Numbered from the stretch's first letter, positions 34,203 to 64,000 are shown. The stretch is 64,000 nt of DNA from Candidatus Amesbacteria bacterium GW2011_GWC2_45_19 (GCA_001001555.1 LCKS01000001.1:82066-146065), one strand, 5' to 3'. The notes: generated by a model not told the origin, from the sequence alone. A program made the numbers and translations.

Positions 34203-34943
34203 ATGAACACTATTAAATTGTCGGTAGTTATGCCGGTCTACCGGCAGGAAAAGAACGTGGTCCGATATCTGCGGGCTCTGGGTAAAGTCTTGGCGGGATT
34301 GAATGTTGTTTACGAAATGATTTGCGTTGTAGACGGCCAAGTGGACAATACTTATGAGAATGCCAAAAAGGCCAAAATCCCAAAACTTAAAGTCTTCACT
34401 TATCCCAAAAATCAGGGGAAAGGCAACGCGGTCCGGTTTGGCATGTCCAGAGCCAGGGGGGAAGTAATCGGTTTTGTAGACGGAGGATTTGACCTTAAAT
34501 ATTCATCCATTCCTTTGGCCTTGGAGCATATGAAGTGGTACAACGCTGATATTATGATCGGATCCAAACGTCATCCCGCTTCCAAAGTCACCTATCCATG
34601 GCAGAGACGGATTTTGTCTTGGGGATATCAAATGGGCGTAAGGCTACTTTTTGGAATTAATGTTAGAGATTCACAGGTTGGTATTAAATTCTTCAAAAGA
34701 AAAGTTGTTAAAGAAATAATGCCAAAATTATTGATAAAAGCTTTTGCTTTTGATATCGAAATGTTGGCAGTAGCCAACCGGATGGGCTTTTCCAGAATTT
34801 ACGAATTTCCCATAGAATTAAAATTGGAATTTGGCACATCTTCAATTGCCTCAATCGGCTTTTTCAAGACTAGCTGGAATATGCTGTGGGACACTCTGGC
34901 TGTCTTTTACCGCCTGAAAATCCGGTGCCACTACGATAAATGA
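34203..34943 (+). CDS. GT2 polyprenyl-phosphate sugar synthase (DPM1/GtrB-like)
   Basis: LSVVMPVYRQEKNV...CVVDGQVDNT...FVDGG...; GC falls from ~48% to ~33% inside this gene. Confidence 0.65.
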   Translation: MNTIKLSVVMPVYRQEKNVVRYLRALGKVLAGLNVVYEMICVVDGQVDNTYENAKKAKIPKLKVFTYPKNQGKGNAVRFGMSRARGEVIGFVDGGFDLKYSSIPLALEHMKWYNADIMIGSKRHPASKVTYPWQRRILSWGYQMGVRLLFGINVRDSQVGIKFFKRKVVKEIMPKLLIKAFAFDIEMLAVANRMGFSRIYEFPIELKLEFGTSSIASIGFFKTSWNMLWDTLAVFYRLKIRCHYDK

Positions 34944-36712
34944 GAAAATTCTGGTTCTCATTAATGACTCCTTTTTTAATTGCCGTTTCTTCGGCTGGGG
35001 CGGCGGATGATAAATTTATCACTGTCGTAAACCCGGTCAGGATTTCTATTTATAATTCTGATCCGGTGGCCAGCATAAAAGCTCAGTATGCAGTAATAAA
35101 CAAATTGAATTTACCGGCAACCTGGCTTGTGACTTATGATGTACTAAATCAACCAGAAATAATTGCCGAATTTAAAAAATTTTCATCCAATCAAGAACCC
35201 GGAATTTTCTTGGAGATTACTCCGGAATTTTCTAAAGTTGCGGGAGTCAAGTACCACAACACCGGCTCCTGGCATTTTGCTAATGCCGTCTTTCTTTCTG
35301 GTTACACCCAAGAAGAGAGGATCAAATTTATCGATACAGTATTTGCTAAATTCAAAGAACAATTCGGCTATTATCCAATTTCCGTAGGTGCTTGGTGGAT
35401 AGACAGTTTTTCTTTAAATTACATGCATAATAAATATGGAATTATAGCCAATTTAGGAGTAGCAGATCAGTACTCTACCGATAATTATCAAGTCTGGGGG
35501 ACTTATTGGTCTATCCCGTATTACCCCAGCAAACTTCACGCCGGTATTCCCGCGGGAAGGGTGGACAATAAAATAGGAGTAGTTATCCTGCAGTGGGCTC
35601 CGCGCGAACCCCGCCGGGGTTATTACAGCAGTCTGTATAGCACCCAGGATTATTTCACCACTCCAAAGCTTGATATCAATTATTTTTCCCAGCTAATTGA
35701 TATATTCCCCCAAGTTACTGTAGGTTTGGAAAGTGACTTTACACCTGAAGCCTATGGGGGTGAATATACCAAGCAAATGCAAATTGTAGCCCAAAAAACC
35801 GCAACCAAGATGACAATGAAAGATTTTGCCAAATGGTACGCAGATAAGTTTCCCGAGGTATCGCCGGAACAAAAGATCGAGTCAGACGGCATGCTCTGGT
35901 ACCAATCGCCTTTTTACCGGTTGAGTATAGATAAGACAAATTTCAAAATAATCGATTTTAGAGTCTATCCGCCGGATTTGCGCGAGCCGTACTATCTGTG
36001 GCCAAACCGGGAAAAAGACTTGCGCATCAATACCCCGTCTTTAATTGATTCTATCCAAAATCCTTCAGAAACTTGGACGATTACTGATCTGAATATCAAA
36101 ACTACTCCAAAATATTTTGAATCAATGAACAAACCGCCCCAAAGTTTTTTCAAGTCAAAATTAATCAAAATTACCCCAATTAACAATAATTGGCGGATAG
36201 AAATAAATACTGAATTAGAGAATTTAACAGACGGGGTCGTTTTTAGTGACTGGAGCCTGGCCACAAAACACTTGCTCAAGGCCCCTAAAAGTCTTATCAG
36301 AGCCATTATTTCTTTCGACTGGAATAAATTTAAGAAAGAAAAATATTGGATTTCTCCGGAAGAAATTATCGGACTGGACAAGTTGAGGCAGCTGCCCGCC
36401 GGCAAAGTGTTGGTCTATAATCACGAATGTTTGCAGTGTGAGTATTTTGGCAAATACCGCCCGGCAGCCTTTGCCAATTCCAGAGGCTATATCCAAAAAT
36501 ATTCCGGGAAAGCCATAATTTACAACAGCGGGATTTTTGAAGCGAAATCTCAAGCTGGGCTGAAATCTAAATTAAAATCTACGGATGCAGGCTATATTTA
36601 TGTAAGCAAATACGCGCCCGGGGTCGAACTATTGAGATTTTCTCCCGGCGACTACGGTATCCGGAAAATATTTGAGAACGCCATGGTCCAGATTTGGAAA
36701 GTAGTAAAATAG
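34940..36712 (+). CDS. Exported hypothetical protein with N-terminal signal peptide (possible carbohydrate-processing enzyme)
   Basis: MRKFWFSLMTPFLIAVSSAGAADD signal peptide; 590 aa soluble, Trp/Tyr-rich; no recognised catalytic motif. Confidence 0.45.
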   Translation: MRKFWFSLMTPFLIAVSSAGAADDKFITVVNPVRISIYNSDPVASIKAQYAVINKLNLPATWLVTYDVLNQPEIIAEFKKFSSNQEPGIFLEITPEFSKVAGVKYHNTGSWHFANAVFLSGYTQEERIKFIDTVFAKFKEQFGYYPISVGAWWIDSFSLNYMHNKYGIIANLGVADQYSTDNYQVWGTYWSIPYYPSKLHAGIPAGRVDNKIGVVILQWAPREPRRGYYSSLYSTQDYFTTPKLDINYFSQLIDIFPQVTVGLESDFTPEAYGGEYTKQMQIVAQKTATKMTMKDFAKWYADKFPEVSPEQKIESDGMLWYQSPFYRLSIDKTNFKIIDFRVYPPDLREPYYLWPNREKDLRINTPSLIDSIQNPSETWTITDLNIKTTPKYFESMNKPPQSFFKSKLIKITPINNNWRIEINTELENLTDGVVFSDWSLATKHLLKAPKSLIRAIISFDWNKFKKEKYWISPEEIIGLDKLRQLPAGKVLVYNHECLQCEYFGKYRPAAFANSRGYIQKYSGKAIIYNSGIFEAKSQAGLKSKLKSTDAGYIYVSKYAPGVELLRFSPGDYGIRKIFENAMVQIWKVVK

Positions 36713-36716
36713 GTCA

Positions 36717-37724
36717 ATGAACTTTCCTGGAGTTAGCATCATTATTCCGGTTTTAAATAACGAACGTACTATTAAAAAGTGCTTGGAATGTGTTACGTTC
36801 CAAGATTATCCTAAAAACAAAGTCGAGATCCTGATTCTTGATGGGGGAAGCACTGACAAAACCATAGCAATCTCAAAATCTTCTAAAAGCATAAACCTTC
36901 ACATTATAAAAGGTGGTTACCGCAACAATATGGAGGCCAGGAGATCTATAGGCTTCCAAAAAGCAAAGCACAATTTAGTATTGGTTTTAGATTCAGACAA
37001 CTACCTATATAGCCCAGACAGCCTTCGAAAGTTAGTCAAGCCCATGCTCGGCAAGGATCGTCTGGTTGGGTCATTCACACTTCATTACCATTATGACTCC
37101 AGATTGCCGCTCTTTACTAGATATATCTCTCTATTTGGCAACCATGATCCTGTTGCCTACTATTTACACAAGGCTGATCGGCAAAAGATTACTCAAAAAA
37201 CCTGGCCACATAAAAATCAAATCGTGTCTACAAAACCGGAATGGACTATTGTTCAATTTAATAAAAAAGATTTCCCGACCCTCGGCTGCAATGGGTTTCT
37301 CATAAACAAAAAATACCTGCACTTAAAAGATATTAAACCGGAGAATTTTTTACATACAGATATTCTCTATGACCTTCTCGATAAAGGATTAAATAAATAT
37401 GCGGTGGTTGATGCTCAGGTTGTTCACGATAGCAGCTCCAGCATTAAACGGCATTTAGAAAAAAGGTATGAATATATGCAGCTCCACCATATTTCTCTGG
37501 CTAAAATAAGGCGCTACAAAGTCTTCGATTCTGACTCGCCCCAGGATCGTCTCCGTCTTGGCAAATTTATTTTATATACTATTACCATTGTCAGACCTCT
37601 CTATGAATCAATCGAAGGATTTTTTCAAAAACCTGATCTCGCCTGGTTTATTCACCCATTTTTATGCTGGGCATTTCTAATCACTTATTCATTTGCGGTA
37701 GTTAATCCTTACAAAAAAGGATGA
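36717..37724 (+). CDS. GT2 glycosyltransferase
   Basis: VSIIIPVLNNERTI...ILILDGGSTDKT...LDSDNYL. Confidence 0.6.
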   Translation: MNFPGVSIIIPVLNNERTIKKCLECVTFQDYPKNKVEILILDGGSTDKTIAISKSSKSINLHIIKGGYRNNMEARRSIGFQKAKHNLVLVLDSDNYLYSPDSLRKLVKPMLGKDRLVGSFTLHYHYDSRLPLFTRYISLFGNHDPVAYYLHKADRQKITQKTWPHKNQIVSTKPEWTIVQFNKKDFPTLGCNGFLINKKYLHLKDIKPENFLHTDILYDLLDKGLNKYAVVDAQVVHDSSSSIKRHLEKRYEYMQLHHISLAKIRRYKVFDSDSPQDRLRLGKFILYTITIVRPLYESIEGFFQKPDLAWFIHPFLCWAFLITYSFAVVNPYKKG

Positions 37725-38833
37725 ACATATTAATTTTAAACTGGAAAGATCTTAAGCATCCACAAGTGGGTGGGGCCGAAATCATAGTCTACGAATTGGC
37801 AAAGAGGCTTGTATCAGTGGGACACGAAGTAACTTGGTTTTGCAGAAGCTTCAAATACGGCAAACATGAAGAGACTATAGACGGAGTCAAGATTGTAAGA
37901 AGAGGCAATCTAGTGACTATGTACTTTCACGCGCCAATATACTATTGGAAACTCCGGAAAAAACCGGATGTTGTAGTCGATATCTCCAACACAATATATT
38001 GGCAAACTCCTTTGTGGGCATGGCAATCAAAAAGAATCGCTTATCTGAACCAACTTGCCCAAGAGGTATTTTATTATGAATACCCGGTCTTTGTATCCAG
38101 ATTCGGTAAATTGGCAGAAAGGCTTCAATACTTGGCATATTTAAACACCAAGTTCGTTTGTTACGCCCAAAGTACAAAGGCAGACTTGATATCAATGGGA
38201 ATAAACGATTCCATGATAAGCACATTCTCATTAGGAGTTGATCACGATAGATATTTTCCTGGCAAAAAGTCAAAAAACCCGTTATTTATATGCGTTAACC
38301 GATTGGTGAAGATGAAAAGAACAGATTTGGTTATCAGAGCCATGGAGATTGTTCATAAGCGTTTTCCTGACACCAGATTAGTAGTCGTAGGATATGGTTA
38401 CGATAGAATAAGACTTGAGAAATTGAGGGATAGTTTGAATCTGGAAGACTCAGTAAAGTTTGCGGATGAAAATATATTATTTTTCACCAAAAACTCAAAG
38501 GATAAAAAAGTAACACTTATGCAACAAGCTTGGGCATTGGTCTTTCCTTCAGTCAAAGAAGGGTGGGGGATGACTGTTACTGAATGTGCAGCCTGTGAAA
38601 CCCCGGCTATAGTGTCCGGCGTCAGCGGACTAAAGGATTCGGTGGTCGATAATCAAACGGGTATTATTCTCTCCCCAAATCCATCGCCTGAAGAAATTGC
38701 CGGCGCAATGGTTAGCTTAATTAAAAACCCGAAACTTCGCAACCACCTGTCTAAACAAGCCAGACTTTACTCGCGAAAATTTAGTTGGGACAAAAGTTAT
38801 CGGGAATTCGCAAACATAATTAGTCGACTATGA
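37721..38833 (+). CDS. GT4 glycosyltransferase, tandem paralog 1 of 3
   Basis: MNILILNWKDLKHPQVGGAEI...EGWGMTVTECAACETPAIVS. Confidence 0.65.
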   Translation: MNILILNWKDLKHPQVGGAEIIVYELAKRLVSVGHEVTWFCRSFKYGKHEETIDGVKIVRRGNLVTMYFHAPIYYWKLRKKPDVVVDISNTIYWQTPLWAWQSKRIAYLNQLAQEVFYYEYPVFVSRFGKLAERLQYLAYLNTKFVCYAQSTKADLISMGINDSMISTFSLGVDHDRYFPGKKSKNPLFICVNRLVKMKRTDLVIRAMEIVHKRFPDTRLVVVGYGYDRIRLEKLRDSLNLEDSVKFADENILFFTKNSKDKKVTLMQQAWALVFPSVKEGWGMTVTECAACETPAIVSGVSGLKDSVVDNQTGIILSPNPSPEEIAGAMVSLIKNPKLRNHLSKQARLYSRKFSWDKSYREFANIISRL

Positions 38834-39960
38834 ATATCCTAATGCTTTCCTGGAGAGGACCAGGTCATCCCAACTCTGGTGGTGCAGAAATAAACACGCT
38901 TGAAAATGTCACTGCATGGACCAAAGCCGGACACAGCGTTACCTGGTTCACTTCGACCTTTCCGGGCGCAACCCCTTTCGAGGTTGTTAACAAAGTGAAA
39001 ATTGTTAGACGCGGATCCCAAAATTTTAAAGTTAATTTAGCGGCATTTACTTGGTATCTTTTTAAACCCCATGAGAGATTTGACATAGTCGTTGATCAAT
39101 TTCATGGATTGCCCTTCTTTACTTCTCTGTACGTTAAGGTTCCTAAACTTGCGTTTATTCATGAAGTGGCCCGTGAGGTTTGGTGGCTAAATCCCTGGCC
39201 TAAACCGTTTAACCTTATTCCAGCCATAGTCGGCAGCTTTCTTGAGCCATGGATATTTCGCATTCTTTACAAAGATATTCCTTTTATGACAGTATCTAAT
39301 TCGACCAAAGAAGATTTAATTAAATATGGAATTCCTGAAAAAAATATATCGGTATTTCTTAGTGGAGTTAATCTTTCCATCCCGTCTCCTTTACCCCCTA
39401 AAAACAAGATTCCAACGATTGTATTTTTAGGAGCATTGTCTAAAGACAAAGGAATAGAAGACGCATTACTTACCTTTTCTTTTATTAGTAAACTCCGTCC
39501 ATCTTGGAAATTCTGGGTGATAGGTCAGGGCGAAACCAACTATCAACTCTATTTAGACACTCTTTGTCAGAAACTGCAGGTAGATAAAAAGGTCAAGTTT
39601 TTGGGTCCGGTTTATTCACTGGAGAAGTTTAAGTTGCTATCACAATCGCACATTTTGATTAATCCTTCAATCCGGGAAGGATGGGGCCTGGTTAATATTG
39701 AAGCTAATGCCGTAGGAACTCCGGTAGTAGGATACTCTGTTCCAGGCACTAAAGATTCAGTTCGTCATCAAATTACCGGTCTCCTCTGTCCTCCCCATCA
39801 TCCAGAGTTGCTGGCCGGGAATACGATCCGGTTAATTGAAAACAAAAAATTATATAAACGACTCGTTTCCAATTCTCTACGTTGGAGTAGACAATTTTCT
39901 TGGGACAAGTTTACTAAACAAAGCTTAAATCTTATTGAAAACCTAGCGGGTAAGAAATGA
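38830..39960 (+). CDS. GT4 glycosyltransferase, tandem paralog 2 of 3
   Basis: MNILMLSWRGPGHPNSGGAEI...EGWGLVNIEANAVGTPVVGY; ATGA overlaps. Confidence 0.65.
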   Translation: MNILMLSWRGPGHPNSGGAEINTLENVTAWTKAGHSVTWFTSTFPGATPFEVVNKVKIVRRGSQNFKVNLAAFTWYLFKPHERFDIVVDQFHGLPFFTSLYVKVPKLAFIHEVAREVWWLNPWPKPFNLIPAIVGSFLEPWIFRILYKDIPFMTVSNSTKEDLIKYGIPEKNISVFLSGVNLSIPSPLPPKNKIPTIVFLGALSKDKGIEDALLTFSFISKLRPSWKFWVIGQGETNYQLYLDTLCQKLQVDKKVKFLGPVYSLEKFKLLSQSHILINPSIREGWGLVNIEANAVGTPVVGYSVPGTKDSVRHQITGLLCPPHHPELLAGNTIRLIENKKLYKRLVSNSLRWSRQFSWDKFTKQSLNLIENLAGKK

Positions 39961-41087
39961 ACATTTTAATGCTTTCCTGGCGCGGTCCCGGCCATCCAAA
40001 CTATGGCGGAGCTGAAATCTCCACTTATCATCATATCCGGGCCTGGGTCAAGGCGGGCCACCAGGTTTATTGGTTTACTTCTTCCGTTCTCCATAGTCCG
40101 TCTGAGGAAACTATCGACGGTGTACACATTATCCGCCGGGGGTTCCAGATTCTGCAAGTCCAATTCGCAGCCGTTATCTGGTATTTTTTCTCTCCCCATC
40201 CCAAATTTGACCTGGTAGTCGATCAGTTTCACGGAATCCCTTTTTTTACCCCTCTTTTTGTTAGATCCAAAAAATTAGCGTTCATTCATGAGGTGGCTAA
40301 AGAAGTTTGGTGGATAAATCATTTGCGCTTTCCCGCCAATTACATATTTGGCACAGCCGGGTTTATTTCCGAACCCTTAATTTTTCGACTTTTTTATCGT
40401 CACATTCCCTTTTTTACCGTATCCCAGTCCACGAAACAAGATTTGATCAAATGGTCCATCCCCGCTTCAAATATTTATATCATACCTAACGGAACCACTA
40501 CTTTGCCTGCTAAATTTGCCAAAGAAAAAACCCCAACCGTGATTTTTTTAGGCGCTGTCGCTCATGATAAGGGAATTGAAGATACACTATTTGCCTTTTC
40601 ATACATTATTAAACTACATCCTCAATGGCGTTTATGGATTGTTGGCAAGAGTGAACCGACCTATCAGGCTAAGCTGGATGAACTCGGTCTTCACTTAGGC
40701 ATTAATTCTCGGCTCAAATTCTGGGGTTTTGTCAATCAACGGAAGAAATTTGAACTGCTGGCCAAAGCTCATGTGATGCTTAACCCGTCCATCAGAGAGG
40801 GTTGGGGATTAGTAAATATTGAAGCTAATTCTGTCGGTACACCCGTTGTCGCCTATGACGTTCCTGGTTGTCGAGATTCTATCCAAAACGGCACAACTGG
40901 CCTTCTCTGTCCCAAAGGCGATATTTCCTGTCTTGCCAAAACCTGCGTTCGTCTCGTGAGTGATAATAAACTATATGAAAAAACGTCAGCTCAAGCTAAG
41001 AAGTGGTCTCTACAATTTTCCTGGGCTAAATCCGCCTCTCTTAGTCTCAAGCTTATTGAGACTTTACGCACAACAAGTTTGCATTAA
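39957..41087 (+). CDS. GT4 glycosyltransferase, tandem paralog 3 of 3
   Basis: MNILMLSWRGPGHPNYGGAEI...EGWGLVNIEANSVGTPVVAY. Confidence 0.65.
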   Translation: MNILMLSWRGPGHPNYGGAEISTYHHIRAWVKAGHQVYWFTSSVLHSPSEETIDGVHIIRRGFQILQVQFAAVIWYFFSPHPKFDLVVDQFHGIPFFTPLFVRSKKLAFIHEVAKEVWWINHLRFPANYIFGTAGFISEPLIFRLFYRHIPFFTVSQSTKQDLIKWSIPASNIYIIPNGTTTLPAKFAKEKTPTVIFLGAVAHDKGIEDTLFAFSYIIKLHPQWRLWIVGKSEPTYQAKLDELGLHLGINSRLKFWGFVNQRKKFELLAKAHVMLNPSIREGWGLVNIEANSVGTPVVAYDVPGCRDSIQNGTTGLLCPKGDISCLAKTCVRLVSDNKLYEKTSAQAKKWSLQFSWAKSASLSLKLIETLRTTSLH

Positions 41088-41937
41088 ATAGTGAACTTTT
41101 AGGATAATTTTTTAACATCTGTTGAAACGAGATTTTGGATACTTTATTAGCAGTACTATCTATTTCATAAACTTTAAACTTATAAGCCTTAAGTAATTCC
41201 AAATAATCTCTACCCGAACTACCGCTTAGATATAATCCCCTCGGCCAAAATTCAGTTAGGATTTTCATTTTTTTGTTCTTTCTTAACACCTCTGACGCTC
41301 CTGTTAAAGCCTTTACCTCTGAGCCTTGAATATCCATCTTAATGACATTAATTCTTTTCTCTTTATTTTTGAAAAAAGTGTCCAATTTGATTGTTCTGAT
41401 AGAAGTAGATCGCCTATTACCTTCTGGATCATAAATGCGTTGGTCTCCAAAATTATCTTCATTACTTAAAAAAAGTTTACTCTTGCCATTTTTGTTCGAT
41501 ACAGCTTTATTTACCAACACTACATTTTTATATCCATTAACTTCCACATTTTTTTTAAGCAACTCAAAATTTTTGGGAAGTGGTTCAAATGCATATACCT
41601 TCCCTTTTGGTCCAACCCTTTTTGCTGCTATCAACGTGTAGTATCCAATATGGGCACCTATATCTATAACGATGTTTCCTGGTTTAATATTCTGTTCAAA
41701 CAGACTTGCCTCAAACTTCTCCCACTTTCCACTCAATATCAGTTCCAGCGAAATCACTCGGTCATCTTTGTCAATGTACATCCGATGGCCGCCAATAATC
41801 AATGATTCGGGTTTAAAAAAATTAACTACCGGCGAGACGACGGCTTTAGTATATGGATTTTCATAAATTTGGTGCACTACGGTCCACAAAACTCCTCTGC
41901 CAATATTTTTATATATTTTTCCAAACACAAGTATCAT
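41053..41937 (-). CDS. FkbM-family SAM-dependent methyltransferase
   Basis: VIDIGAHIGYYTLIAAKRVGPKGKVYAFEPLPKNFELLKKNVEVNGY...MDIQGSEVKAL. Confidence 0.6.
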   Translation of the reverse strand: MILVFGKIYKNIGRGVLWTVVHQIYENPYTKAVVSPVVNFFKPESLIIGGHRMYIDKDDRVISLELILSGKWEKFEASLFEQNIKPGNIVIDIGAHIGYYTLIAAKRVGPKGKVYAFEPLPKNFELLKKNVEVNGYKNVVLVNKAVSNKNGKSKLFLSNEDNFGDQRIYDPEGNRRSTSIRTIKLDTFFKNKEKRINVIKMDIQGSEVKALTGASEVLRKNKKMKILTEFWPRGLYLSGSSGRDYLELLKAYKFKVYEIDSTANKVSKISFQQMLKNYPKSSLFNANLLCVKSQ

Positions 41938-41940
41938 TAT

Positions 41941-43790: not shown

Positions 43791-43805
43791 ACTTCTATAC
43801 AGCTC

Positions 43806-44189
43806 ATGCGGTTTGTGTTTGTAGGAGGACTGGCGGTGGGGGTTGATTTTATGGTTTATTTTGGGTTGTTATTTTTACTATCGGGTATTTCTACTCCTTT
43901 GGCTAAGGCTATATCTTACATCTGTGGGGCAACAGTTTCGTTTGTGGGCCACCGGTCTTTTGTATTTGCAGCCCACGATCGGCAGGCCAGACATCAAGTC
44001 CTGCCTTTTATTATTCTGTATGGAAGTTCTTTAATAGCCAACAATCTAATTAACCAAGTTATTTTAAATCTGACAGGGGTAAGAGTCCTGGCTTGGTTTA
44101 TAGCCATTTGCTCCTCAACTACCATAAACTATCTGGGGATGAAATTTGGAGTGTTTAGAGACGGATCTTTACACTTGCCAAAAATGTGA
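43806..44189 (+). CDS. GtrA-family small membrane protein
   Basis: MRFVFVGGLAVGVDFMVYFGLL..., 4 TM, 127 aa. Confidence 0.55.
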   Translation: MRFVFVGGLAVGVDFMVYFGLLFLLSGISTPLAKAISYICGATVSFVGHRSFVFAAHDRQARHQVLPFIILYGSSLIANNLINQVILNLTGVRVLAWFIAICSSTTINYLGMKFGVFRDGSLHLPKM

Positions 44190-46014: not shown

Positions 46015-46030
46015 CTTCAGCCAAACACTG

Positions 46031-46036
46031 TATAAT
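46031..46036 (+). promoter_or_regulatory. TATAAT -10 box 7 nt upstream of GTG start (leaderless configuration)
   Basis: ctgTATAATcactataGTG. Confidence 0.4.
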
Positions 46037-46043
46037 CACTATA

Positions 46044-47027: not shown

Positions 47028-47029
47028 AA

Positions 47030-51718: not shown

Positions 51719-51729
51719 TATAATATAAT
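51719..51729 (+). promoter_or_regulatory. Overlapping TATAAT boxes (TATAATATAAT) 7 nt upstream of ATG 51736 (leaderless configuration)
   Basis: Read directly; only 17 nt between divergent ORFs. Confidence 0.4.
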
Positions 51730-51735
51730 CTCTTC

Positions 51736-55669: not shown

Positions 55670-55672
55670 GCC

Positions 55673-56437
55673 ATGAAAACATTAGCAGTTATTGGCGGCA
55701 GTGGAACGTTGGGGTCTGATTTGGTTCAATATTTTTCAACTAAATTTGTTGTTATATCAATAAACAGAGGTAATTATCGGGATCAAATAGGAAAACTTTT
55801 TGATGTTGTGATAAACGCAAATGGGAATAGTAAGCGTTTTTGGGCAAACCAAAATCCCGTAGAAGATTTTTTCGCTTCTTCTGCTTCTGTAATCAAAAGT
55901 ATTTTCGATTTTCCTTGCGACGTTTATATTTATATTTCCTCTCCAGATATATACGAGAACCACAGTGAACCTAAGTACACTAAGGAAAACGTGCAAATTA
56001 ACCCAAAAAGACTAGAACCGTATGGACTTCATAAGTATTTAGCAGAGCTCATTGTAAAGAAATATAAAGAAAAATTTCTTATCTTAAGACTTTCGATGTT
56101 TCTTGGGAAAAAATTAAAAAAGGGACCAATTCACGATGTCATCAAGGATAACCCGATTTACGTTACTCTTAACTCAAAACTCCAACTTATAAGCACTTTT
56201 GCAGTCGCCGAAGTGATCGAAGTCCTCCTGAATAAATCTATCAGAAATGAAGTCTTTAATGTCGGTGGAGTTGGAACTTTCTCCTTTTTGGATGCAAAAA
56301 AACTTTTAAAAAAGAATATCCAGGTCAGACCAGACGCAAAGAAGCAGTTATACGAAATGGATACCAATAAACTAAAACGTTTATATCCAGCTTTAAAAAC
56401 CTCCGAGGAATACTTGCGACAGTTTCTATTAGTGTAG
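55673..56437 (+). CDS. Short SDR-family NAD(P)-dependent sugar-nucleotide reductase (RmlD-like)
   Basis: MKTLAVIGGSGTLGSDL Rossmann; YGLHKYLAE (YxxxK). Confidence 0.5.
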   Translation: MKTLAVIGGSGTLGSDLVQYFSTKFVVISINRGNYRDQIGKLFDVVINANGNSKRFWANQNPVEDFFASSASVIKSIFDFPCDVYIYISSPDIYENHSEPKYTKENVQINPKRLEPYGLHKYLAELIVKKYKEKFLILRLSMFLGKKLKKGPIHDVIKDNPIYVTLNSKLQLISTFAVAEVIEVLLNKSIRNEVFNVGGVGTFSFLDAKKLLKKNIQVRPDAKKQLYEMDTNKLKRLYPALKTSEEYLRQFLLV

Positions 56438-56465
56438 AGTTTCGTGTTACAATTTATCTGTTTTC

Positions 56466-57614
56466 ATGAGCGTTAAAAAGAAAAATTACACATTAAGCGA
56501 AGATCTGATTCGGCCATGGTCGACATTTGTTCCCAAGCAAGCAGCGATTGAAGTGTCCAAAACTTTGAAATCAAAATGGATTAATACGGGAGTCAAAGAA
56601 AAAGAGTTAAGAGAAAAAGCTTGTAAAAAATGGAGCTTTCGCTACTGTGTTGCTGTCTCCAATGGGACTGCCGCGCTAAGGTCCAGCCTTGCGATGCTGG
56701 GAGTTGGTTCTGGTGATGAAGTGATTTCTACTCCTTTCACTTTTATTGCTACAAATACAGCAATTTTAGAACAGAGAGCAGTACCTGTTTTTGCTGACAT
56801 CAAATACGATGATCTTAATATAGATCCCAAAAGCATTGAGAAAAGAATCACTTCAAAAACAAAAGCAATCATGGTGGTTCATTACGGCGGAAACCCCGTT
56901 GATTTAGATGAAATACGAAAGATAGGGACAAAATACAAGCTTCCTTTAATTGAAGACGCAGCTCACGCCTTAGGGAGTAAGTACAAGAATGATTACATTG
57001 GTTTAAAAGGAGAACTTGTGTGTTTTTCTCTGCAAGTTGTAAAAATCATCACCTCGGGAGATGGCGGTTTAATCGCAACTTCTAACCAAGATTATTATCA
57101 AAAACTCAAAAAAATCATTTGGTACGGCATTGATAGAGAGGAAAAAAAAACAAATCTTATAGATCCCTTGCCCAATAACTTTAAAGGTGACGTGCTCGGC
57201 TTTAAATATAATATGAACGACATAACAGCTACTTTAGGGATAGTTGGAATTGATCACTTCAATGAGGCGGCCAAAAAAAGAAAAGTCATAGGCGAGCGCT
57301 ATAGAAATGAGCTCTCAGGGCTACCAAAAATAAAGCTCATGAAGTACCATGCTGACCGAAGCCCCAATTATCAGATATTTCCAGTTCATGTTGAAAACCG
57401 TCTGCGCTTTGCAACATACTTAAGGGACCAAAATATCATGGTAAACATCAATAATCGCAGAAATGATATATATCCAATATTTGGCGGCCTTAGGAAAGAT
57501 CTTACATCAACCGCGCGAGCTGATCAGGACGTTATCCTCCTCCCAATACATGCTGACCTTACCCAACGGCAAGTGGACCATATTATTAAACATGTTAAAG
57601 AAGCCGTTAGATAA
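56466..57614 (+). CDS. DegT/DnrJ/EryC1/StrS-family PLP-dependent sugar aminotransferase
   Basis: AVSNGTAALRSSL...DEVISTPFTFIATN...IEDAAHALGS...SLQVVKIITSGDGG (Schiff-base Lys present). Confidence 0.7.
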   Translation: MSVKKKNYTLSEDLIRPWSTFVPKQAAIEVSKTLKSKWINTGVKEKELREKACKKWSFRYCVAVSNGTAALRSSLAMLGVGSGDEVISTPFTFIATNTAILEQRAVPVFADIKYDDLNIDPKSIEKRITSKTKAIMVVHYGGNPVDLDEIRKIGTKYKLPLIEDAAHALGSKYKNDYIGLKGELVCFSLQVVKIITSGDGGLIATSNQDYYQKLKKIIWYGIDREEKKTNLIDPLPNNFKGDVLGFKYNMNDITATLGIVGIDHFNEAAKKRKVIGERYRNELSGLPKIKLMKYHADRSPNYQIFPVHVENRLRFATYLRDQNIMVNINNRRNDIYPIFGGLRKDLTSTARADQDVILLPIHADLTQRQVDHIIKHVKEAVR

Positions 57615-57619
57615 ATTAG

Positions 57620-58777
57620 TTGAGGATGAATAAGTCAATTGTCTATATCAACTACTCACCCTACGAAAATTCAGGAAAAATACTAGACTACCTGCTTGAT
57701 AATTTTGTTAACGTATTTCATTTTTCTATAGGGTTTCATAATTTAAAAAATAAAAAAAATTACAACAGACTAATAATTTTCAAAAACGGAAAATTAGAAA
57801 AAGAATTCGTCCTCTTTCAACTACCCATACCCTCATCACTTGTGTTTATATTGCTACCAATTAGGTCACTAATCAATTTTCTTCAGATTATTAGATATAC
57901 GGTTTGGCTCAAATACAAATATAAGACAATCAACATCTATTTCACAGTCAATGCGTTCATTGCCTGGATCGGAAATCTCCTTAGAGGTTTTGGGGTTGTA
58001 GAAAAAACCGTCTTTTGGGTTTGGGATTATTACCCGCCTATTCATGAAAATAAAATCATCATGCTTATGAGGTATGTTTATTGGCAATTTGACAAGATTA
58101 GTTCCTACTCGGATAAGGTAGCTTTTGTTAACCACAGATTACTTAATTTACGTAAAGACATGGGGATTTATGAAAGAAATGCCAAACATCCAATTATCCC
58201 AATCGGAACCGATAAATTTGCATACACCAAAAGGAAAAATGCCAAGAAAGTAATATTTGGGTTCATAGGTGTGCTTAAAAAGAGCCAAGGACCCGGAATC
58301 ATTTTTGATCACTCTCACGCATTGTTCAAAAAATTTAAAACCTTTCAGTACGAAGTTGTCGGGTCAGGTCCGGATGAGGAATATTTAAAACACAGAGCGT
58401 ATGAAACAGAAGTCCAAACTAAGTTTTATGGCTATCTTGAAGGCGAATCGTTTAATCAGGTTTTGAACAGATGCACTATTGGTATAGCCACTTATATTCC
58501 TGATCCGAGTAATGTTTCCTATTATGGGGACCCCGGAAAAATTAAAAGATACATTAGTCTAGGGTTACCTGTTATATGTACTGATGTCTTGGAGTTTTCA
58601 AGAGAAATAGAGAGATCAGAATCAGGAATAATCGTTAATTACGATGATTCCAAAGCGTTTGTAGCCGCCGTTGGAAAAATTATGTCAAAATACCCTTTTT
58701 ACAGCAAGAACGCGTACAAATTGAGTCAAAAATATTACTACAAAAAAATTTATCCTGAGATGTTTGACCTTAACTAG
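57620..58777 (+). CDS. GT-B-fold glycosyltransferase (GT4-like), AT-rich
   Basis: 385 aa; C-terminal half with Rossmann-like pattern (VIFGFIGVL...EVVGSGPDEEYL...IGIATY); weak similarity only. Confidence 0.4.
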   Translation: MRMNKSIVYINYSPYENSGKILDYLLDNFVNVFHFSIGFHNLKNKKNYNRLIIFKNGKLEKEFVLFQLPIPSSLVFILLPIRSLINFLQIIRYTVWLKYKYKTINIYFTVNAFIAWIGNLLRGFGVVEKTVFWVWDYYPPIHENKIIMLMRYVYWQFDKISSYSDKVAFVNHRLLNLRKDMGIYERNAKHPIIPIGTDKFAYTKRKNAKKVIFGFIGVLKKSQGPGIIFDHSHALFKKFKTFQYEVVGSGPDEEYLKHRAYETEVQTKFYGYLEGESFNQVLNRCTIGIATYIPDPSNVSYYGDPGKIKRYISLGLPVICTDVLEFSREIERSESGIIVNYDDSKAFVAAVGKIMSKYPFYSKNAYKLSQKYYYKKIYPEMFDLN

Positions 58778-58810
58778 TAAAATTCTAACCATTTTGTATA
58801 ATCTGGTTAA

Positions 58811-59719
58811 ATGGCCGCTAAATCAGAAAGACGAATTTTAATTACGGGAACAAGTGGATTTATCGGATCAACGTGCATTCATACATTAGCTGGTAGAAAA
58901 GATTACTCACTAGTTTGTCCTTCATCGGCGCAGATGGACATAACTAACAAGCATGCAGTAGAAGACGCAGTAAAACAATATCGACCGGATACTATTCTAA
59001 ATTTTGCAGCCCACCGAAACGCTAACACAGCAGAAATCCAGAGAGGCGACGAAGAAGGCAGTGCCTGGATGATAAATGTTGTAGGAGCCAAAAATCTTGC
59101 CGAAGTCTGCAATATATACAGAATATATTTGCTTCACGTTTCTACAGATATGGTTTTTAGTGGAAAAGAAACGCGGAAGGGACCATACTCCGAAAGTGAT
59201 ACACCCGAAAATGATCCCAACAATCTATCCTGGTATGGTTGGACTAAAAGACTGGCAGAACAAGCCGTCATTTCAAATGAGAACGCTTGTGTTGTGAGGA
59301 TAGGCAATGTGACTAAACCCATCTATGATCCTAGTTTAGATTATATTGGAAAAATTCAGTGGCTCTACGATACAGGTAATTCATACCCGCTTTTTCATGA
59401 TCAAAATATAACTTTGACATACATACCTGAACTTGTAGATTCAATGATACAACTAATTGATGCCAGAATGAGTGGTGTATATCATGTAGCAAGCGACAAC
59501 GTTACTACTCCGGTGGAGCTGGCTAAGTATTTGATGTCTAATGTGCGCCCAGATAGAAATAAAATCAAAGAAGTCCGTATCGACGAATATCTTAGTGCGC
59601 ATCCAAACAGATATCCCAAAGATGGTGGATTGAAAAGTCAAAATACTCAAAAAAAACTAGGAAAAAAGTTTAGATCATGGCAAATGATAGTAGACTGTTT
59701 TATTAAATACGCCACATGA
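58811..59719 (+). CDS. RmlD-like NAD(P)-dependent 4-keto sugar-nucleotide reductase
   Basis: ILITGTSGFIGS...RPDTILNFAA...LLHVSTDMVFSG...PYSESD...YGWTKRLAE matches dTDP-4-dehydrorhamnose reductase family. Confidence 0.6.
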   Translation: MAAKSERRILITGTSGFIGSTCIHTLAGRKDYSLVCPSSAQMDITNKHAVEDAVKQYRPDTILNFAAHRNANTAEIQRGDEEGSAWMINVVGAKNLAEVCNIYRIYLLHVSTDMVFSGKETRKGPYSESDTPENDPNNLSWYGWTKRLAEQAVISNENACVVRIGNVTKPIYDPSLDYIGKIQWLYDTGNSYPLFHDQNITLTYIPELVDSMIQLIDARMSGVYHVASDNVTTPVELAKYLMSNVRPDRNKIKEVRIDEYLSAHPNRYPKDGGLKSQNTQKKLGKKFRSWQMIVDCFIKYAT

Positions 59720-60744
59720 CAAGAATGATTAAATGGCCAAAGGTATCATTCATTTTGCTCACATTAAATGGTGGAGACGGCATTCGTAAATGCCTAGAAT
59801 CACTTAAAAAACAATCATACCCTGCTGATCTGATTGATGTCGTAGTCATCGATAACGGATCAAAAGACAACAGTGTTGAAATAGCTAAAAGCCTTGGAGG
59901 AAGAGTATTCATCCACCCTGAAGGAAATTTATATTCCAACTGGGTAAGAGGGCTTCATAAAATTAGAGGGGACTTCGTTTTTTATTTAGAACAAGATATC
60001 GTTCTAAGGGGGAGAGATTTTATCAAAAACATGATCAAACCCCTTCTTGACGACAACCGGCTGGTTGCAACGTTCACTAAGGAATATCCGCATAAAAACA
60101 TGCACTGGGTTCCCAGGTTTCTTTCTTATCACTATTGTCAGTGCGATCCGCTTTTAGAATTTCTTTTTTTGCCTGTGGAAAAATCTTTTATCGAAAAAAA
60201 GAACGGCTATATTGTATGTAAATACCAAGACAAAAAAATCCCACCGGCCGCTCGTATGTTTTATAGAATCAAGTATTTAAAAAAGACACCTAACTGGACC
60301 ACAAAAAATTATTTTGATCATGATTTTATTATTAATTGCGTGCGGTCAGGTTATCCTTATTTTGCCTATGTTCCCGAACCGGGTTATTACCATTACCATG
60401 CTAGGAACTTACAGCATTTAATGCAAAAGAGAGTCCGTAACATGGGTATGCATTTCTTTCCTGAATATGGAAAATATCATTACACCATCTTGAATACGAA
60501 GAATAAACATGAAGTCCTGTGGTTAATTTTGTTCGTCATTTACGCCAATCTCTTTTTTCCTGCCGCAATAAGAGGGTTTATTCGCTTTCTGAAACATAAG
60601 GATTGGGCGCTCTTGATGGAACCTGTCATTACATTAGCGATAACAGACTCGCTTTTACTCGCTTTTCTAAAAGACAAGAGTGGTAGGAAGTTTATAACCG
60701 ATTCCATAAATTCATTTATTAAGGTTCAGCCTGTCGCATCATAA
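59716..60744 (+). CDS. GT2 glycosyltransferase
   Basis: VSFILLTLNGGDGI...VVVIDNGSKDNS...EQDIVL. Confidence 0.6.
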   Translation: MTRMIKWPKVSFILLTLNGGDGIRKCLESLKKQSYPADLIDVVVIDNGSKDNSVEIAKSLGGRVFIHPEGNLYSNWVRGLHKIRGDFVFYLEQDIVLRGRDFIKNMIKPLLDDNRLVATFTKEYPHKNMHWVPRFLSYHYCQCDPLLEFLFLPVEKSFIEKKNGYIVCKYQDKKIPPAARMFYRIKYLKKTPNWTTKNYFDHDFIINCVRSGYPYFAYVPEPGYYHYHARNLQHLMQKRVRNMGMHFFPEYGKYHYTILNTKNKHEVLWLILFVIYANLFFPAAIRGFIRFLKHKDWALLMEPVITLAITDSLLLAFLKDKSGRKFITDSINSFIKVQPVAS

Positions 60745-60749
60745 TTTCT

Positions 60750-62750
60750 ATGCTTAGGAAATTAATACTGTTTATATTGATCCCGTTTCTTTTGACGTCA
60801 ATTTGGTTTGGACCAAGAAAAATTATTGCCCATGCCGAAGAGGGTTTACTCTTTTTTAATCCAATTAGGACGTATCTAATTTCATCGCATCTCTGGCAGG
60901 ATACAGGATTGGGATTTGTTAATCTGTTCTCAACACCACGAATAACGTTGTATATATTCTCTGCTGGACTAAGCAGCTTAAAAATTTCCAATTTTGTTGT
61001 TCAACAATTGATTTTCTTTTTGTTAATTTTAGTACCGCTAGTATCAATACCCCCCCTGACTAAACTATTGTTACCTGACTCGAAAAGCAACGTTGGTACC
61101 TACGCTGCACTATTTTATGTATTTAACTTATTTTTTGTTTCCCAGGTTCTGCAGCGATTTATTATAGAGTTATTTTTTTTGTGGTCATACCTTCCACTAT
61201 TTATCTACCTTTGGGTTAGATGGTTAGAGTCGAGTAAGCTAAAGTATCTTATATTATTAATCCTTTCGTCCGTCATTTATTCTACATCCTTCGCAATTAT
61301 TGCTTCTGTTTTCGCACTTTGGATACCAGCCGGGGTTTTATGGTTAAAGTATCGAAGATTTCCACCCTTGATAGTTGGGGCCGTAATTTGGTTTCTGGCA
61401 GCAATTTGGTGGTGGTATCCATTAGTTGTCATAAAAGATAATCCTTATAATCAATTTTTAAACTCAGCTCAAAACCTAATCTCACTTGTAGATGTCAGTA
61501 AATACTATTCTAATTCCGACATTTTATTATTAAAGCAAAAATACTATTTTTCTCCCCAAACTATCTGGTTCAACTTTTTTTCCCGCCCACCCATAAATTA
61601 TCTTAGCTGGGTTTTTCCCATCTTACTCGCTGTGGGTTCAATTTGGGCTATCAGATCTAGATCAAGCAGGCTTTTAATTATCTGGCTTATAGTGGGTTGG
61701 TTTTTTGTCAAAGGAGCCAATCCTCCCTGGGGTACCCAATTTTACGAATGGTTGTTTGAAACCCTTCCGTTCACCATGGTCGTACGCAATCCATACGAAA
61801 AACTTGGAGTAATTTTTCTCCTTCCTTATTGTTTGCTCATGGCACTGGGATTGTCCAGGATACCAATTCGTTTTGTTCGAGTAGTCATTGTCTTTGCTGT
61901 GTGCTTCTTCTTGTTAAGGCCAATGTGGAACGGCCAGGTTTTTACGGGATATCAGGTTAAAGTTCCTCTGTCTTACGAGCTAGCAGACCACTATCTCAAC
62001 TCTCAGAGTAATCTTCGCCTCCTTCACTTGCCTTTTGTTCATGGATCTGGGGTAGGATATAACTGGGGGTATTTGGGAGACGAACCTTCAGAATTTACGT
62101 TCGATCGGCCTTCTTTGTCCAAAACATACAATTTCTCAGGCGATCCTTATATGCTAATTTATCAATACTTACGCTCACCAAACGTTTATCGGATTCTTCA
62201 GCAATTTGCCATAGACACCGCGGTTTTACATAAAGACATTTTGCCAGGAGTGACTTTACAAGAAAATTATGCAGGTGCCAAAGCAATGATCGGACTGATG
62301 GAAAAGGTTAAACTTACAAAATCATTTGATGATCTGGATATATACCAACTTGAAGACGCGCCTGTAGACTGGGGCTACTTAAGCAACAACATTACAGAAG
62401 TAAAATCATTAAAAGAGGGCTTAGATATGGTTTTAAACAATGAGAGGTTTATTCCTCTTTACTCAGCTTTTACCTTGCGAACAGACATTCCGAATATAAA
62501 ACAATCAATTCTTCCACAATATCAAATTAATAAGATTTCGCAAGTTCACTATCAATTTCAAATCTACAATGCCGCCTCACCCTATTTTCTTATCCTTTCT
62601 AATAGTTTTAATCCCCTTTGGATTGCTAGGATCAATGGATTAATCGTCACAGACCATTTTCAAATAAATGGTTACGCTAATGGATGGCTTATCAATAAAA
62701 CTGGGAATTACACAGTTGATATTACATTCAAAGTCTGGCCATGGGATTAA
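60750..62750 (+). CDS. Large polytopic membrane protein (666 aa) with C-terminal soluble domain; putative GT-C-type transferase/polymerase
   Basis: >12 TM in first ~420 aa then hydrophilic C-terminal ~240 aa; no recognised motif. Confidence 0.4.
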   Translation: MLRKLILFILIPFLLTSIWFGPRKIIAHAEEGLLFFNPIRTYLISSHLWQDTGLGFVNLFSTPRITLYIFSAGLSSLKISNFVVQQLIFFLLILVPLVSIPPLTKLLLPDSKSNVGTYAALFYVFNLFFVSQVLQRFIIELFFLWSYLPLFIYLWVRWLESSKLKYLILLILSSVIYSTSFAIIASVFALWIPAGVLWLKYRRFPPLIVGAVIWFLAAIWWWYPLVVIKDNPYNQFLNSAQNLISLVDVSKYYSNSDILLLKQKYYFSPQTIWFNFFSRPPINYLSWVFPILLAVGSIWAIRSRSSRLLIIWLIVGWFFVKGANPPWGTQFYEWLFETLPFTMVVRNPYEKLGVIFLLPYCLLMALGLSRIPIRFVRVVIVFAVCFFLLRPMWNGQVFTGYQVKVPLSYELADHYLNSQSNLRLLHLPFVHGSGVGYNWGYLGDEPSEFTFDRPSLSKTYNFSGDPYMLIYQYLRSPNVYRILQQFAIDTAVLHKDILPGVTLQENYAGAKAMIGLMEKVKLTKSFDDLDIYQLEDAPVDWGYLSNNITEVKSLKEGLDMVLNNERFIPLYSAFTLRTDIPNIKQSILPQYQINKISQVHYQFQIYNAASPYFLILSNSFNPLWIARINGLIVTDHFQINGYANGWLINKTGNYTVDITFKVWPWD

Positions 62751-63487
62751 AATCAAAAAAATTTAAAGACTGGACTATTTCATATTTTAATGAAGTCGAG
62801 TTAAATGAAATGTTAAAAGAACTATACGAGAAAAAATATTATCAGTTTGATACCTCAAAACCAGACCCGGTTATATTTGACGTTGGAGCCCTGATTGGTG
62901 AAACAGTTTTATATTTTAAAGAGCGATTTCCGCGAGCGAAAATCACGGCTTTCGAACCCAGTCCACGCAGTTTCTCTCTGCTCAAAAAAAATATCAGCAG
63001 AAACCGCGTTACCGGCGTCCGGTTACTTAACTTGGCAGTAGGCAAAGTTGCTGGCAAAATGGATTTCTACATAGACAAAAATGAAAACGTACCCTGGGGT
63101 AGGGGAGACTCCCTGAAAAATACAAAATTCACCAATCCGTCAATCTCAAAAACGGTTAAAGTTCAAGTAGTTCGACTTTCCAAATATATCAACGCTAATG
63201 TCGACTTGCTAAAATTGGACGTGGAGGGAGCGGAAACGGAGATCGTCTGCGAAATTGAAAAAAAACTCAAATTTGTTAAAAACATTATTCTCGAATTCCA
63301 TGAGAGCGTCTACAACCCCGAAAACAAGTTCTCGATCGTAATTGGCGTTCTTAAAAAAAATGGATTTAGAATAAGCATTTATCTTGGTAAATGGCCGTTG
63401 CCGGAGATCGCGGTAATTTTGGCCAGAGTCGTGCTAAAATTAGTGAGTATCGACGAATATTGGCTGCGCATTTATGCAAAACATTAA
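62741..63487 (+). CDS. FkbM-family SAM-dependent methyltransferase
   Basis: VIFDVGALIGETVLYFKERFPRAKITAFEPSPRSFSLLKKNI...KLDVEGAETEIV. Confidence 0.6.
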   Translation: MGLKSKKFKDWTISYFNEVELNEMLKELYEKKYYQFDTSKPDPVIFDVGALIGETVLYFKERFPRAKITAFEPSPRSFSLLKKNISRNRVTGVRLLNLAVGKVAGKMDFYIDKNENVPWGRGDSLKNTKFTNPSISKTVKVQVVRLSKYINANVDLLKLDVEGAETEIVCEIEKKLKFVKNIILEFHESVYNPENKFSIVIGVLKKNGFRISIYLGKWPLPEIAVILARVVLKLVSIDEYWLRIYAKH

Positions 63488-63508
63488 TGAACATTTTATT
63501 TCGTCAGC

Positions 63509-64000
63509 TATGAAAGTTATAATCCTGTGCGAAGGTTTTGGTACTAGATTGTCGTCAATTATTTCCGATAGACCCAAACCTTTAGCCCCGATTGCGGGAA
63601 AACCTTTTATAGAGCACATCATAAAGTGGCTTTGTAAATACGGCTACAGAGACATAATTTTCTGCGTTAGTTATAAAGCTGAACAAATTGTAAAATTTAT
63701 AGGAGATGGTAAGAAATTCGGCATCAAGGCAACATATTCCCAAAGGGCCCAACCTTCAGGGACAGGCGGAGCTATCAAGTTTGCCGGTCGATTGTTGCAA
63801 GATAAAAATGAAAGTGTATTAGTACTTAATGGAGACACTTTATTTGACATTAACTTGAATAAATTTGTAGAATTTCACGATAAAAACAAATCGTTTGCAA
63901 CTATCGCCCTTAGTCACGTTTTGGATGTGCATCAATATGGAGAAGTCAGTATCGATTCCGGATATCAACTAATCAAATTCAGCGAAAAAAATCCAGAAAG
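63509..64000 (+). CDS. Sugar-1-phosphate nucleotidyltransferase (mannose-1-P guanylyltransferase-like), 3'-truncated by window edge
   Basis: MKVIILCEGFGTRLSSIISDRPKPLAPIAGKPFIEHII...GTGGAIKFA; not in ORF track because no stop codon before the window end. Confidence 0.6.

Follow-up and report, generated by a model that had tools for sequence, protein, structure and literature searches.

A low-GC glycan-biosynthesis module probably joined to host-like DNA by recombination inside a glycosyltransferase gene of Candidatus Amesbacteria

The 64,000-nt stretch of a Candidatus Amesbacteria metagenome-assembled genome (MAG) analysed here (LCKS01000001.1:82066-146065, the whole of which is called the window) is made of two parts of different base composition which meet inside a single gene, that of a family 2 glycosyltransferase (GT2) at 34203..34943. 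We consider it probable, with good but not full confidence, that the right part is an exchangeable glycan module, low in G+C content (GC), and that it was joined to the host-like left block by recombination inside this GT2. The observations behind this reading are a shift in composition, its reproducibility between assemblies, the recombinant structure of the GT2, a change of topology at synonymous sites and the recurrence of the boundary, with another cargo, in another lineage. The features around the junction are the following (GC1, GC2 and GC3 designate GC at the first, second and third codon positions; aa, amino acids; ORF, open reading frame).

1..34202: host-like block, 46.8% GC and GC3 of about 0.52, with GT-C/PMT_2-like proteins, GT2s, family 4 glycosyltransferases (GT4s) and a Wzx-like flippase (composition and Pfam)
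33090..34202, plus strand: Mannosyl_trans2 (PIG-V/Gpi18-like) membrane protein of 370 aa, the last host-like gene, GC 49.4%, GC3 0.62 (Pfam PF04188)
34203..34943, plus strand: recombinant GT2 of 246 residues, putatively DPM1/GtrB-like (Pfam PF00535)
34433..34685: zone of the crossover and of the compositional change-point (raw GC, ortholog-controlled GC3 and MaxChi estimates)
34940..36712, plus strand: conserved 590-aa protein with no match in Pfam, NCBIfam or PDB sequences (ORF, ortholog comparison)

The GC profile was calculated in 1-kb steps over the whole window and submitted to a maximum-likelihood change-point analysis. The dominant single change-point was found at 34,610 (log-likelihood ratio of about 200), with a 2-log-likelihood support interval, 34,455-34,685, lying wholly within the GT2 gene; GC was 46.8% over 1-34,610 versus 39.0% over 34,611-64,000. 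An earlier note, made from the sequence of this DNA, had announced a fall from 50-55% to 37-40% at about 34.5 kb: its position and direction were right but its amplitude was too large, the highest 1-kb value left of the change-point being at most 52.3%. The 60-mers sampled in that note have the GC it reported (56.7% at 13.4 kb and 36.7% at 38.1 kb) but are unrepresentative of the two halves. Likewise, the transition does occur inside the GT2 gene, but between gene halves of 45.0% and 38.9% GC instead of the 48% and 33% given there. Sliding-window GC, tetranucleotide and codon-usage profiles all differ across 34.5 kb, and composition is not uniform. From left to right, GC1 goes from about 0.51 to 0.44, GC2 from about 0.39 to 0.35 and GC3, which shows the largest drop, from about 0.52 to 0.37. 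Codon choice changes as well, CGC going from 0.37 to 0.11 and AGA from 0.11 to 0.39 for arginine, and GGC from 0.46 to 0.21 for glycine. For the GC-normalised dinucleotide signature, Karlin delta* x1000 amounts to 36-39 when parts of one half are compared and to 74 when the two halves are, and the 4-mer correlation is 0.90-0.96 inside halves versus 0.66-0.84 across. Membrane-protein content was considered as a cause of the high GC on the left and rejected: the soluble GT2s of the left have a GC3 of 0.53-0.56, and the membrane proteins of the right one of 0.36-0.44.

The GT2 gene itself is heterogeneous, with a GC3 of 0.53 in its first half and of 0.41 in the second. Its 5' part (34203 to about 34440) is host-like in GC3 (0.53) and diverges from every known ortholog; its 3' part (about 34441 to 34943) is low in GC. 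At the protein level, residues 1-90 are 58-64% identical to the members of one ortholog clade (P0003-P0008, including the proteins of the related contigs L023, L003 and L025) and residues 91-246 are 88-91% identical to them, while for the remaining homologs identity is roughly even along the length. In the 5' part, L025, L023 and L003 are mutually 82-86% identical, with 27-32% GC, and the window is the outlier (62-66% identity, 45% GC); in the adjoining left-flank gene, the three are only 53-57% identical. A MaxChi analysis of 949 informative sites placed a breakpoint at about 34,433, with a chi2 of 168 that was reached by none of 2000 permutations. When codon-aligned orthologs were compared, the GC3 excess of the window over L023 was +0.158 from 24.6 kb onwards and fell to +0.04 after a break at about 34,461-34,527. 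The possibility that an intragenic step is intrinsic to the GT2 family was rejected: GC3 does not drop from 5' to 3' in the L023 and L003 orthologs (0.34-0.35 to 0.38-0.39, versus 0.53 to 0.41 in the window), and the ortholog of the mid-GC contig L121 is uniform (0.47 and 0.50 in its two halves). The junction GT2 is a recombinant; half-gene identity, MaxChi and four-fold degenerate sites (see below) all bear out the earlier proposal that the gene is chimeric and that the modules are joined inside it. As to its function, the NCBIfam matches (the polyprenyl-phosphate glycosyltransferases PgfS, PpgS and ArnC, together with AglJ and dolichyl-phosphate hexose transferase) were all far below the curated cut-offs.

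The nearest relative of the window changes at the same place. In sliding-window DNA comparisons, the window is 72-88% identical to L025 and 52-66% identical to L023 and L003 to the left of about 34.4 kb, and the Mannosyl_trans2 protein is 87% identical to that of L025 and 51-58% to those of L023 and L003. From 34.47 kb (34.47-35.2 kb), L023 is the closest, with 85-88% versus about 80% for L025, and it is so again over 36.1-36.8 kb (80-86% versus 57-74%). At four-fold sites, the window-L023 identity above composition-based saturation amounts to 0.095 in seven left genes, which is near saturation, and to 0.363, as high as for the sister lineage, in the 590-aa gene and the 3' part of the GT2 taken together (left versus right, Fisher p = 4.7e-6). 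Of L025 and L023, the former is by far the nearer to the window on the left (p = 2e-14), an ordering which is gone on the right. The window-L025 four-fold identity is homogeneous among the left genes (0.46-0.56; chi2 5.6, p = 0.47), and goes from 0.39 to 0.82 among the right genes (chi2 98.8, p = 3e-17), including a patchy 0.50 to 0.82 for the genes of 36717..41087; such patchiness on the right argues for repeated segmental exchange.

The first gene after the junction GT2 shows this patchwork internally. Within the 590-aa gene, 34.9-35.2 kb and 36.1-36.7 kb are nearer to the distant relative L023 (79-82% at the nucleotide level) than to L025 (64-66%). Across Microgenomates its product is always encoded directly after the junction GT2, with 51% identity in L004 (Woesebacteria) and 83% in L023, where it is called as two genes (127 and 429 aa). 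Over 34.2-36.7 kb the window has 79% DNA identity to L023 and L003; this was also considered as a stand-alone proof of transfer, and set aside as insufficient, since in all relatives no protein of the block is better conserved than the GT2 and the 590-aa protein. The same left/right incongruence recurs at window-equivalent 72 kb, where a 740-aa protein has a 65% identical homolog on the sister contig, and 74-77% identical homologs in lineages whose left-flank identity is 58-59%.

The comparison with relatives brings in three more features of the left block, which together with the Mannosyl_trans2 gene form a conserved frame.

21374..30675, plus strand: six tandem paralogous GT-C (PMT_2/ArnT-like) membrane proteins of about 500-537 aa, the PMT array (ORFs; PMT/PMT_2/PTPS_related matches)
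30675..31490, plus strand: GT2 of the left frame (Pfam; orthologs in L023, L025, L004, L010, L112 and L121)
31472..32464, plus strand: GT4 of the left frame (Pfam; orthologs in the same six contigs)

The gene order PMT array, GT2, GT4, Mannosyl_trans2 gene, GT2, 590-aa gene, GT4 is common to L023, L003, L004 and L010, and arrays of five PMT genes are syntenic in L023, L025 and L112. As judged from these gene orders, the arrangement across the 34.5 kb junction is ancestral in Microgenomates, which would mean that the modules were joined by allelic replacement in a syntenic frame and not by juxtaposition of unrelated gene sets. The left frame is kept in L023, L025, L112, L119 and L121, and the cargo differs in L112 and, beyond about 41 kb, in L023. 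There is no GC step at the boundary in the low-GC contigs L023 (39.6% versus 38.3%), L004 and L010, and essentially none in L121. In L025, GC goes from 46% to 39% at the GT2 start, just after the Mannosyl_trans2 gene. In L112 (Amesbacteria GWB1_47_19), the syntenic left frame (46.5% GC) gives way to 36.0% GC right after the Mannosyl_trans2 gene, and the cargo is entirely different (epimerase, dehydratase, PMT, GT2, acetyltransferase and flippase). The 3' end of the Mannosyl_trans2 gene is, in the window, L025 and L112, a recurrent boundary with a variable module.

The scenario that we favour runs as follows. The window would be part of one very large cell-envelope glycosylation locus, of which 1-34.4 kb, host-like in composition (about 47% GC), was vertically inherited. 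From about 34.45 kb to beyond the window, i.e. over at least 39 kb, would extend a variable module for glycan biosynthesis, low in GC (about 39%), which lineages of Microgenomates would have exchanged by homologous recombination inside the conserved syntenic frame, with lower-GC relatives as the most likely source pool. The left crossover probably occurred inside the conserved DPM1-like GT2, and the resulting gene, in which the 5' third, high in GC, would be resident and the other two-thirds, low in GC, imported, is predicted to be a functional chimera. The corresponding crossover in L025, or a later one, would lie at or upstream of the GT2 start, and later segmental exchanges would have patched the module. 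Composition points to a transfer from a low-GC donor to a 47% recipient, the 5' part of the GT2 being presumably the resident allele; diversifying selection on surface glycans may have driven the exchange. No tRNA gene was found in the 64-kb window, and none of the annotated genes of the low-GC tract has an integrase or recombinase domain; together with the position of the junction in a homologous gene, this argues for homologous recombination rather than for site-specific integration.

The tract and its surroundings were followed beyond the window on overlapping contigs. To the right, low-GC DNA runs for at least 9.5 kb more, that is at least 38.9 kb at 39.3% GC. A scan of metagenome contigs with the GT4 found at the right end of L022 gave only homologs of 39% identity or less, and the exact 740-aa protein was present only on short contigs, all of which stop about 600 bp past its gene. 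Three of them, L116, L117 and L118, were assembled independently and end about 600 bp after the 740-aa gene (window-equivalent of about 74.8 kb), which hints at a repeat or a strain-variable point there. To the left of the window start, the trmD, LigT and CAP-domain genes have 46-48% GC (45.6% for trmD), but a second low-GC tract (34-39%), with genes for a sortase, an fn3 protein, an alginate-lyase-2 and a UDP-glucose dehydrogenase, lies about 3-8 kb left of the window (about 4950-10142 of L114), so that the 47% block is flanked by low-GC cell-surface genes on both sides. The genome thus carries several such tracts. A core composition of about 46-47% GC is supported by trmD and by the '47' in MAG names (GWB1_47_26, GWB1_47_19), which we take to be the bin GC according to the Banfield-lab naming convention.

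Several points weigh against an imported, exchangeable module. The low-GC module is common to L025 and has about the same overall divergence from it as the left block, which indicates that the basic mosaic is old and unameliorated, and which a simple one-off horizontal transfer fails to explain. No donor was identified, lineages similar to L023 sharing only the first 2.5-7 kb of the module. Among 24 contigs, mostly from one aquifer, none has an alternative module beside an identical left-flank protein. The right end of the low-GC tract was not reached at window-equivalent 74.8 kb or so, and the second tract only about 3 kb to the left of the window means that low-GC DNA is not rare here. Host GC was derived from the MAG name, the 34.6-kb left block and a few flanking housekeeping genes. 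As to the 590-aa gene, the recombinant could be either the window or L025, and the R1-R2 left/right contrast at four-fold sites was not significant (p = 0.11).

A broader proposal goes further than exchange of the module: the 3' end of the Mannosyl_trans2 gene could be a long-lived hotspot in Amesbacteria of about 47% GC, where cassettes of a low-GC pool, common to Microgenomates lineages that are about 10 GC points apart, are swapped in repeatedly by homologous recombination and kept AT-rich. We regard this as a tentative idea, with perhaps a modest chance of being right; that the cassettes would be actively kept AT-rich is suggested by the absence of amelioration over about 20% protein divergence. 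If it holds, episymbionts of the Candidate Phyla Radiation (CPR) would run an O-antigen-like, community-wide diversification of surface glycans, plausibly driven by recognition by phages or hosts, and low GC itself would be maintained by continual re-import or by selection.

The observation that the composition persists through about 20% protein divergence, together with the presence of the step in the window, L025 and L112 and the existence of the second low-GC cell-surface tract, would also be understandable if there had been divergence in situ without transfer, accessory glycan genes drifting or being selected towards low GC (by AT-biased mutation under weaker selection, expression-linked codon bias or selection for AT-rich DNA) and the step marking a change of selective regime. 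Low GC is moreover near-universal in polysaccharide clusters, and still 'needs explanation' (Reeves and colleagues, PMC3715488). We nevertheless hold this improbable: it does not predict that protein identity to one ortholog clade should jump, inside a gene, from about 60% to about 90%, nor a reversal of the nearest relative or a jump in synonymous similarity to a distant lineage, nor another gene content at the same boundary in L112. In situ processes may, however, contribute to holding GC low after transfer.

The presence of low-GC DNA on both sides of the 47% block, and the 34-40% GC of most relatives in the gene family, leave room for the reverse polarity, in which the approximately 39% GC DNA is native and the 47% block, from about 3 kb left of the window to 34.4 kb, was imported. 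This we judge very unlikely. The names of this MAG and of two relatives presumably give, by the naming convention mentioned above, a bin GC of 47%, and trmD and its neighbours have 46-48% GC. The 47% block is evenly diverged from L025, with a clean sister relation, whereas the low-GC part is patchy and incongruent. Finally, L112 retains the 47% block with another low-GC cargo.

The junction is reproduced in other assemblies. Across it, two Joint Genome Institute (JGI) contigs from two other assemblies match the window with 100% identity, L001 over 33,583-42,852 and L002 over 33,903-35,027. The junction protein (in a 237-aa version) and the left-flank protein are each found on at least 24 contigs from JGI, NCBI and Logan, which without exception have the same neighbour genes on both sides. 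The junction protein is 100% identical to a protein of Candidatus Amesbacteria bacterium GW2011_GWB1_47_26, a CPR/Microgenomates MAG, from which, or from a nearly identical population, the window would come. L025, a sister lineage from a different aquifer (Hainich) with an identity of about 80%, is collinear with the window between the PMT array and 44 kb and shows the GC step as well. An assembly or binning chimera joining the DNA of two organisms near 34.5 kb might come to mind with a MAG as the source, an NCBI contig (LCOO01000002.1) that stops near the junction, at window-equivalent 30.9 kb, and L001 terminating within the ORF 41941..42969, but contigs identical across a junction that lies in an intact, conserved ORF, and a collinear relative from elsewhere, reduce its probability to almost nothing, and the mis-join envisaged in the earlier note is ruled out for practical purposes. 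A sharp GC step in a MAG need not, then, mean a binning or assembly error.

An exchangeable module with a crossover in a shared gene has well-known counterparts. The galactose-initiated O-antigen clusters of Salmonella enterica are segments of 28-45% GC, with sub-segments of differing GC, in a genome of 51-52%, and recombination there ends inside shared genes, rmlB tracking the host, with a higher GC, and rmlC tracking the O-type, with a lower GC (PMC3715488). In Enterobacteriales, surface-polysaccharide loci are exchanged by horizontal transfer across species and genera (PMC7305143). As in O-antigen (rfb) and capsule (cps/kps) loci, genes for sugar nucleotides and glycosyltransferases are clustered here with a GC below that of the host (34-41% versus about 47%), and the crossover in the GT2 gene resembles the rmlB/rmlC pattern. 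There are also differences. The host is an ultra-small CPR bacterium without outer membrane or lipopolysaccharide, so that no O antigen can be its product; with at least 39 kb, the tract is longer; the sampled population holds no alternative alleles; the mosaic is old and unameliorated. In addition, none of the module's genes was recognised as coding for Wzy, Wzz or an initiating phosphotransferase, and the one flippase that is clearly Wzx-like (11260..12720) is encoded in the host-like block.

Exchange within Microgenomates in groundwater populations also agrees with what is reported, in the passages on matching topics, by a survey of 125 MAGs of aquifer Patescibacteria, which found hundreds of genomic islands and transferred genes making up to 13% of genome length, most transfers being between Patescibacteria (PMC12455944). 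Islands were defined in those passages by composition and IslandViewer-type methods, whereas the breakpoint was obtained here by comparative recombination analysis; the same passages describe neither this locus, nor a glycan-module hotspot, nor intragenic crossovers. A literature search on the MAG name or on Amesbacteria glycosyltransferases returned no papers. Compared with integrative genomic islands, the likeness is in a tract of tens of kb with an anomalous GC beside core-like DNA; the difference is that the window has no tRNA gene, the tract no integrase domain, and that the junction, instead of being at an att site, lies in a homologous gene. Free-living marine and halophilic microbes have flexible or 'metagenomic' glycosylation islands, a concept of Rodriguez-Valera: low-GC, strain-variable groups of genes for glycosyltransferases and sugar modification at a fixed chromosomal position, which would diversify the cell surface under pressure from phages. 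Those are defined by under-recruitment and by variation among co-occurring strains, whereas the module is the same here on all contigs with the identical left flank, and variation is seen only between lineages.

What we describe is a new instance, in a CPR genome, of a known pattern, the exchangeable glycan module of O-antigen or capsule type, and involves no new mechanism. CPR bacteria (Patescibacteria) are thought to be host-attached, their surface chemistry is almost unknown, and their typical genome is of about 1 Mb. In a genome of probably about 1 Mb, a glycosylation locus that exceeds 70 kb suggests a heavy investment in surface glycans; with a part, the module, that behaves like an exchangeable serotype cassette, this locus is a candidate determinant of host or phage specificity. 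The classical Enterobacterial pattern of low-GC polysaccharide clusters recombining via shared flanking genes would be extended to a distant, reduced lineage, and the mapped intragenic crossover could mark cassette exchange among groundwater Microgenomates.

Glycosyltransferases and genes for the synthesis or modification of nucleotide sugars are co-located throughout 34.2-64 kb and beyond. The genes of the module, apart from those of the junction and of the region around 42 kb, are the following.

36717..37724, plus strand: GT2 (Pfam)
37721..38833, 38830..39960 and 39957..41087, plus strand: three GT4s (Pfam)
44205..53675: NDP-sugar epimerase, nucleotidyltransferase, second epimerase, GT2-methyltransferase fusion, two membrane proteins, GT2 and GT4, at about 40% GC (Pfam/NCBIfam)
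47030..48436, minus strand: the fusion, with an N-terminal GT2 and a C-terminal class-I methyltransferase in a single ORF of 468 aa (Pfam)
48418..49962 and 49946..51718, minus strand: the two multi-pass membrane proteins (ORFs)
53721..64000, plus strand: three epimerase/dehydratase genes, a DegT-type aminotransferase, GT4, RmlD-like reductase, GT2, a 666-aa membrane protein and a Methyltransf_21 protein (Pfam)
60750..62750, plus strand: the 666-aa multi-pass membrane protein (ORF)

The three multi-pass proteins (48418..49962, 49946..51718 and 60750..62750) had no match in Pfam and NCBIfam. A secondary and weak GC step, from 40.0% to 37.1%, was found at about 53.5 kb (log-likelihood ratio of only about 12); 53721..64000 is the lowest-GC part of the module, at 37.1%. 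The step, at about 53,500, falls between the GT4 gene 52566..53675 and the epimerase gene 53721..54704, and may be a sub-module boundary inside the low-GC tract.

A second peculiarity of composition is found around 42 kb, where the genes are:

41053..41937, minus strand: Methyltransf_21-type methyltransferase, 34.0% GC, the lowest near the island (Pfam)
41941..42969, plus strand: island ORF of 342 aa with a CPADCLDC (CxxxCxxC, radical-SAM-like) motif (codon-position analysis)
42966..43790, minus strand: convergent GT2 (Pfam)
about 43806..44189, plus strand: GtrA-like protein (Pfam)

A higher-GC island at 41.9-43.2 kb had been proposed as a separately sourced module. The rise in raw GC is real, the ORF 41941..42969 having 48.1% GC beside the 34% methyltransferase gene, but GC3 is 0.414, like that of its neighbours, and the excess is confined to GC1 (0.57) and GC2 (0.46). 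The ORF, which is rich in amino acids with GC-rich codons, thus owes its GC to amino-acid composition, and a foreign insert was rejected. The same pattern is seen in its L025 ortholog (GC 0.452, GC3 0.383). No other gene of the module is so poorly conserved (58% aa identity to L025), and searches of Pfam, NCBIfam and PDB sequences gave no match for it. The 3' end of the convergent GT2, said in the same note to have about 50% GC, has 46% in its last third, with a GC3 of 0.51 versus 0.38 in L025; over some 87-90 codons, and with no third lineage available, this rise is not significant, and the idea of a second chimeric junction in that gene was dropped. Of the general claim that the locus is assembled from differently sourced modules with junctions inside genes, what stands is the junction at 34.5 kb, and not those at 41.9-43.2 kb.

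The remaining features of the host-like block, listed below, include a small pair of genes inside the conserved frame and two islets of lower GC.

6488..7180, minus strand: IS200-like Y1 transposase, an islet of 40.7% GC
10854..11234, plus strand: PIN-domain gene, also an islet of 40.7% GC
11260..12720: the Wzx-like flippase (Polysacc_synt_3)
32503..32787 and 32784..33050, plus strand: BrnT/BrnA-like toxin-antitoxin pair, a dip to 39% GC (Pfam, ORFs)

GT-C/PMT_2 multi-pass membrane proteins are unusually dense on the left, with at least 10 of them within 421..30675; one, encoded by 1482..3638, carries a fused N-terminal GT2 domain. The BrnT/BrnA-like pair is a lineage-specific insertion, absent from L025. 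Other genes are inserted at a different place, between the PMT array and the GT2, namely a Bro-N-domain gene in L025 and, in L112, a NUDIX gene very rich in AT (GC3 0.27), which suggests that there are small insertion hotspots inside the conserved frame. In LCOO01000002.1 (L020/L111), over window-equivalent 30.9-33 kb, the GT4 is split (228 and 74 aa) and there is no BrnT call, in contrast to the window; frameshifts or assembly errors seem to be present in that region of the public MAG.

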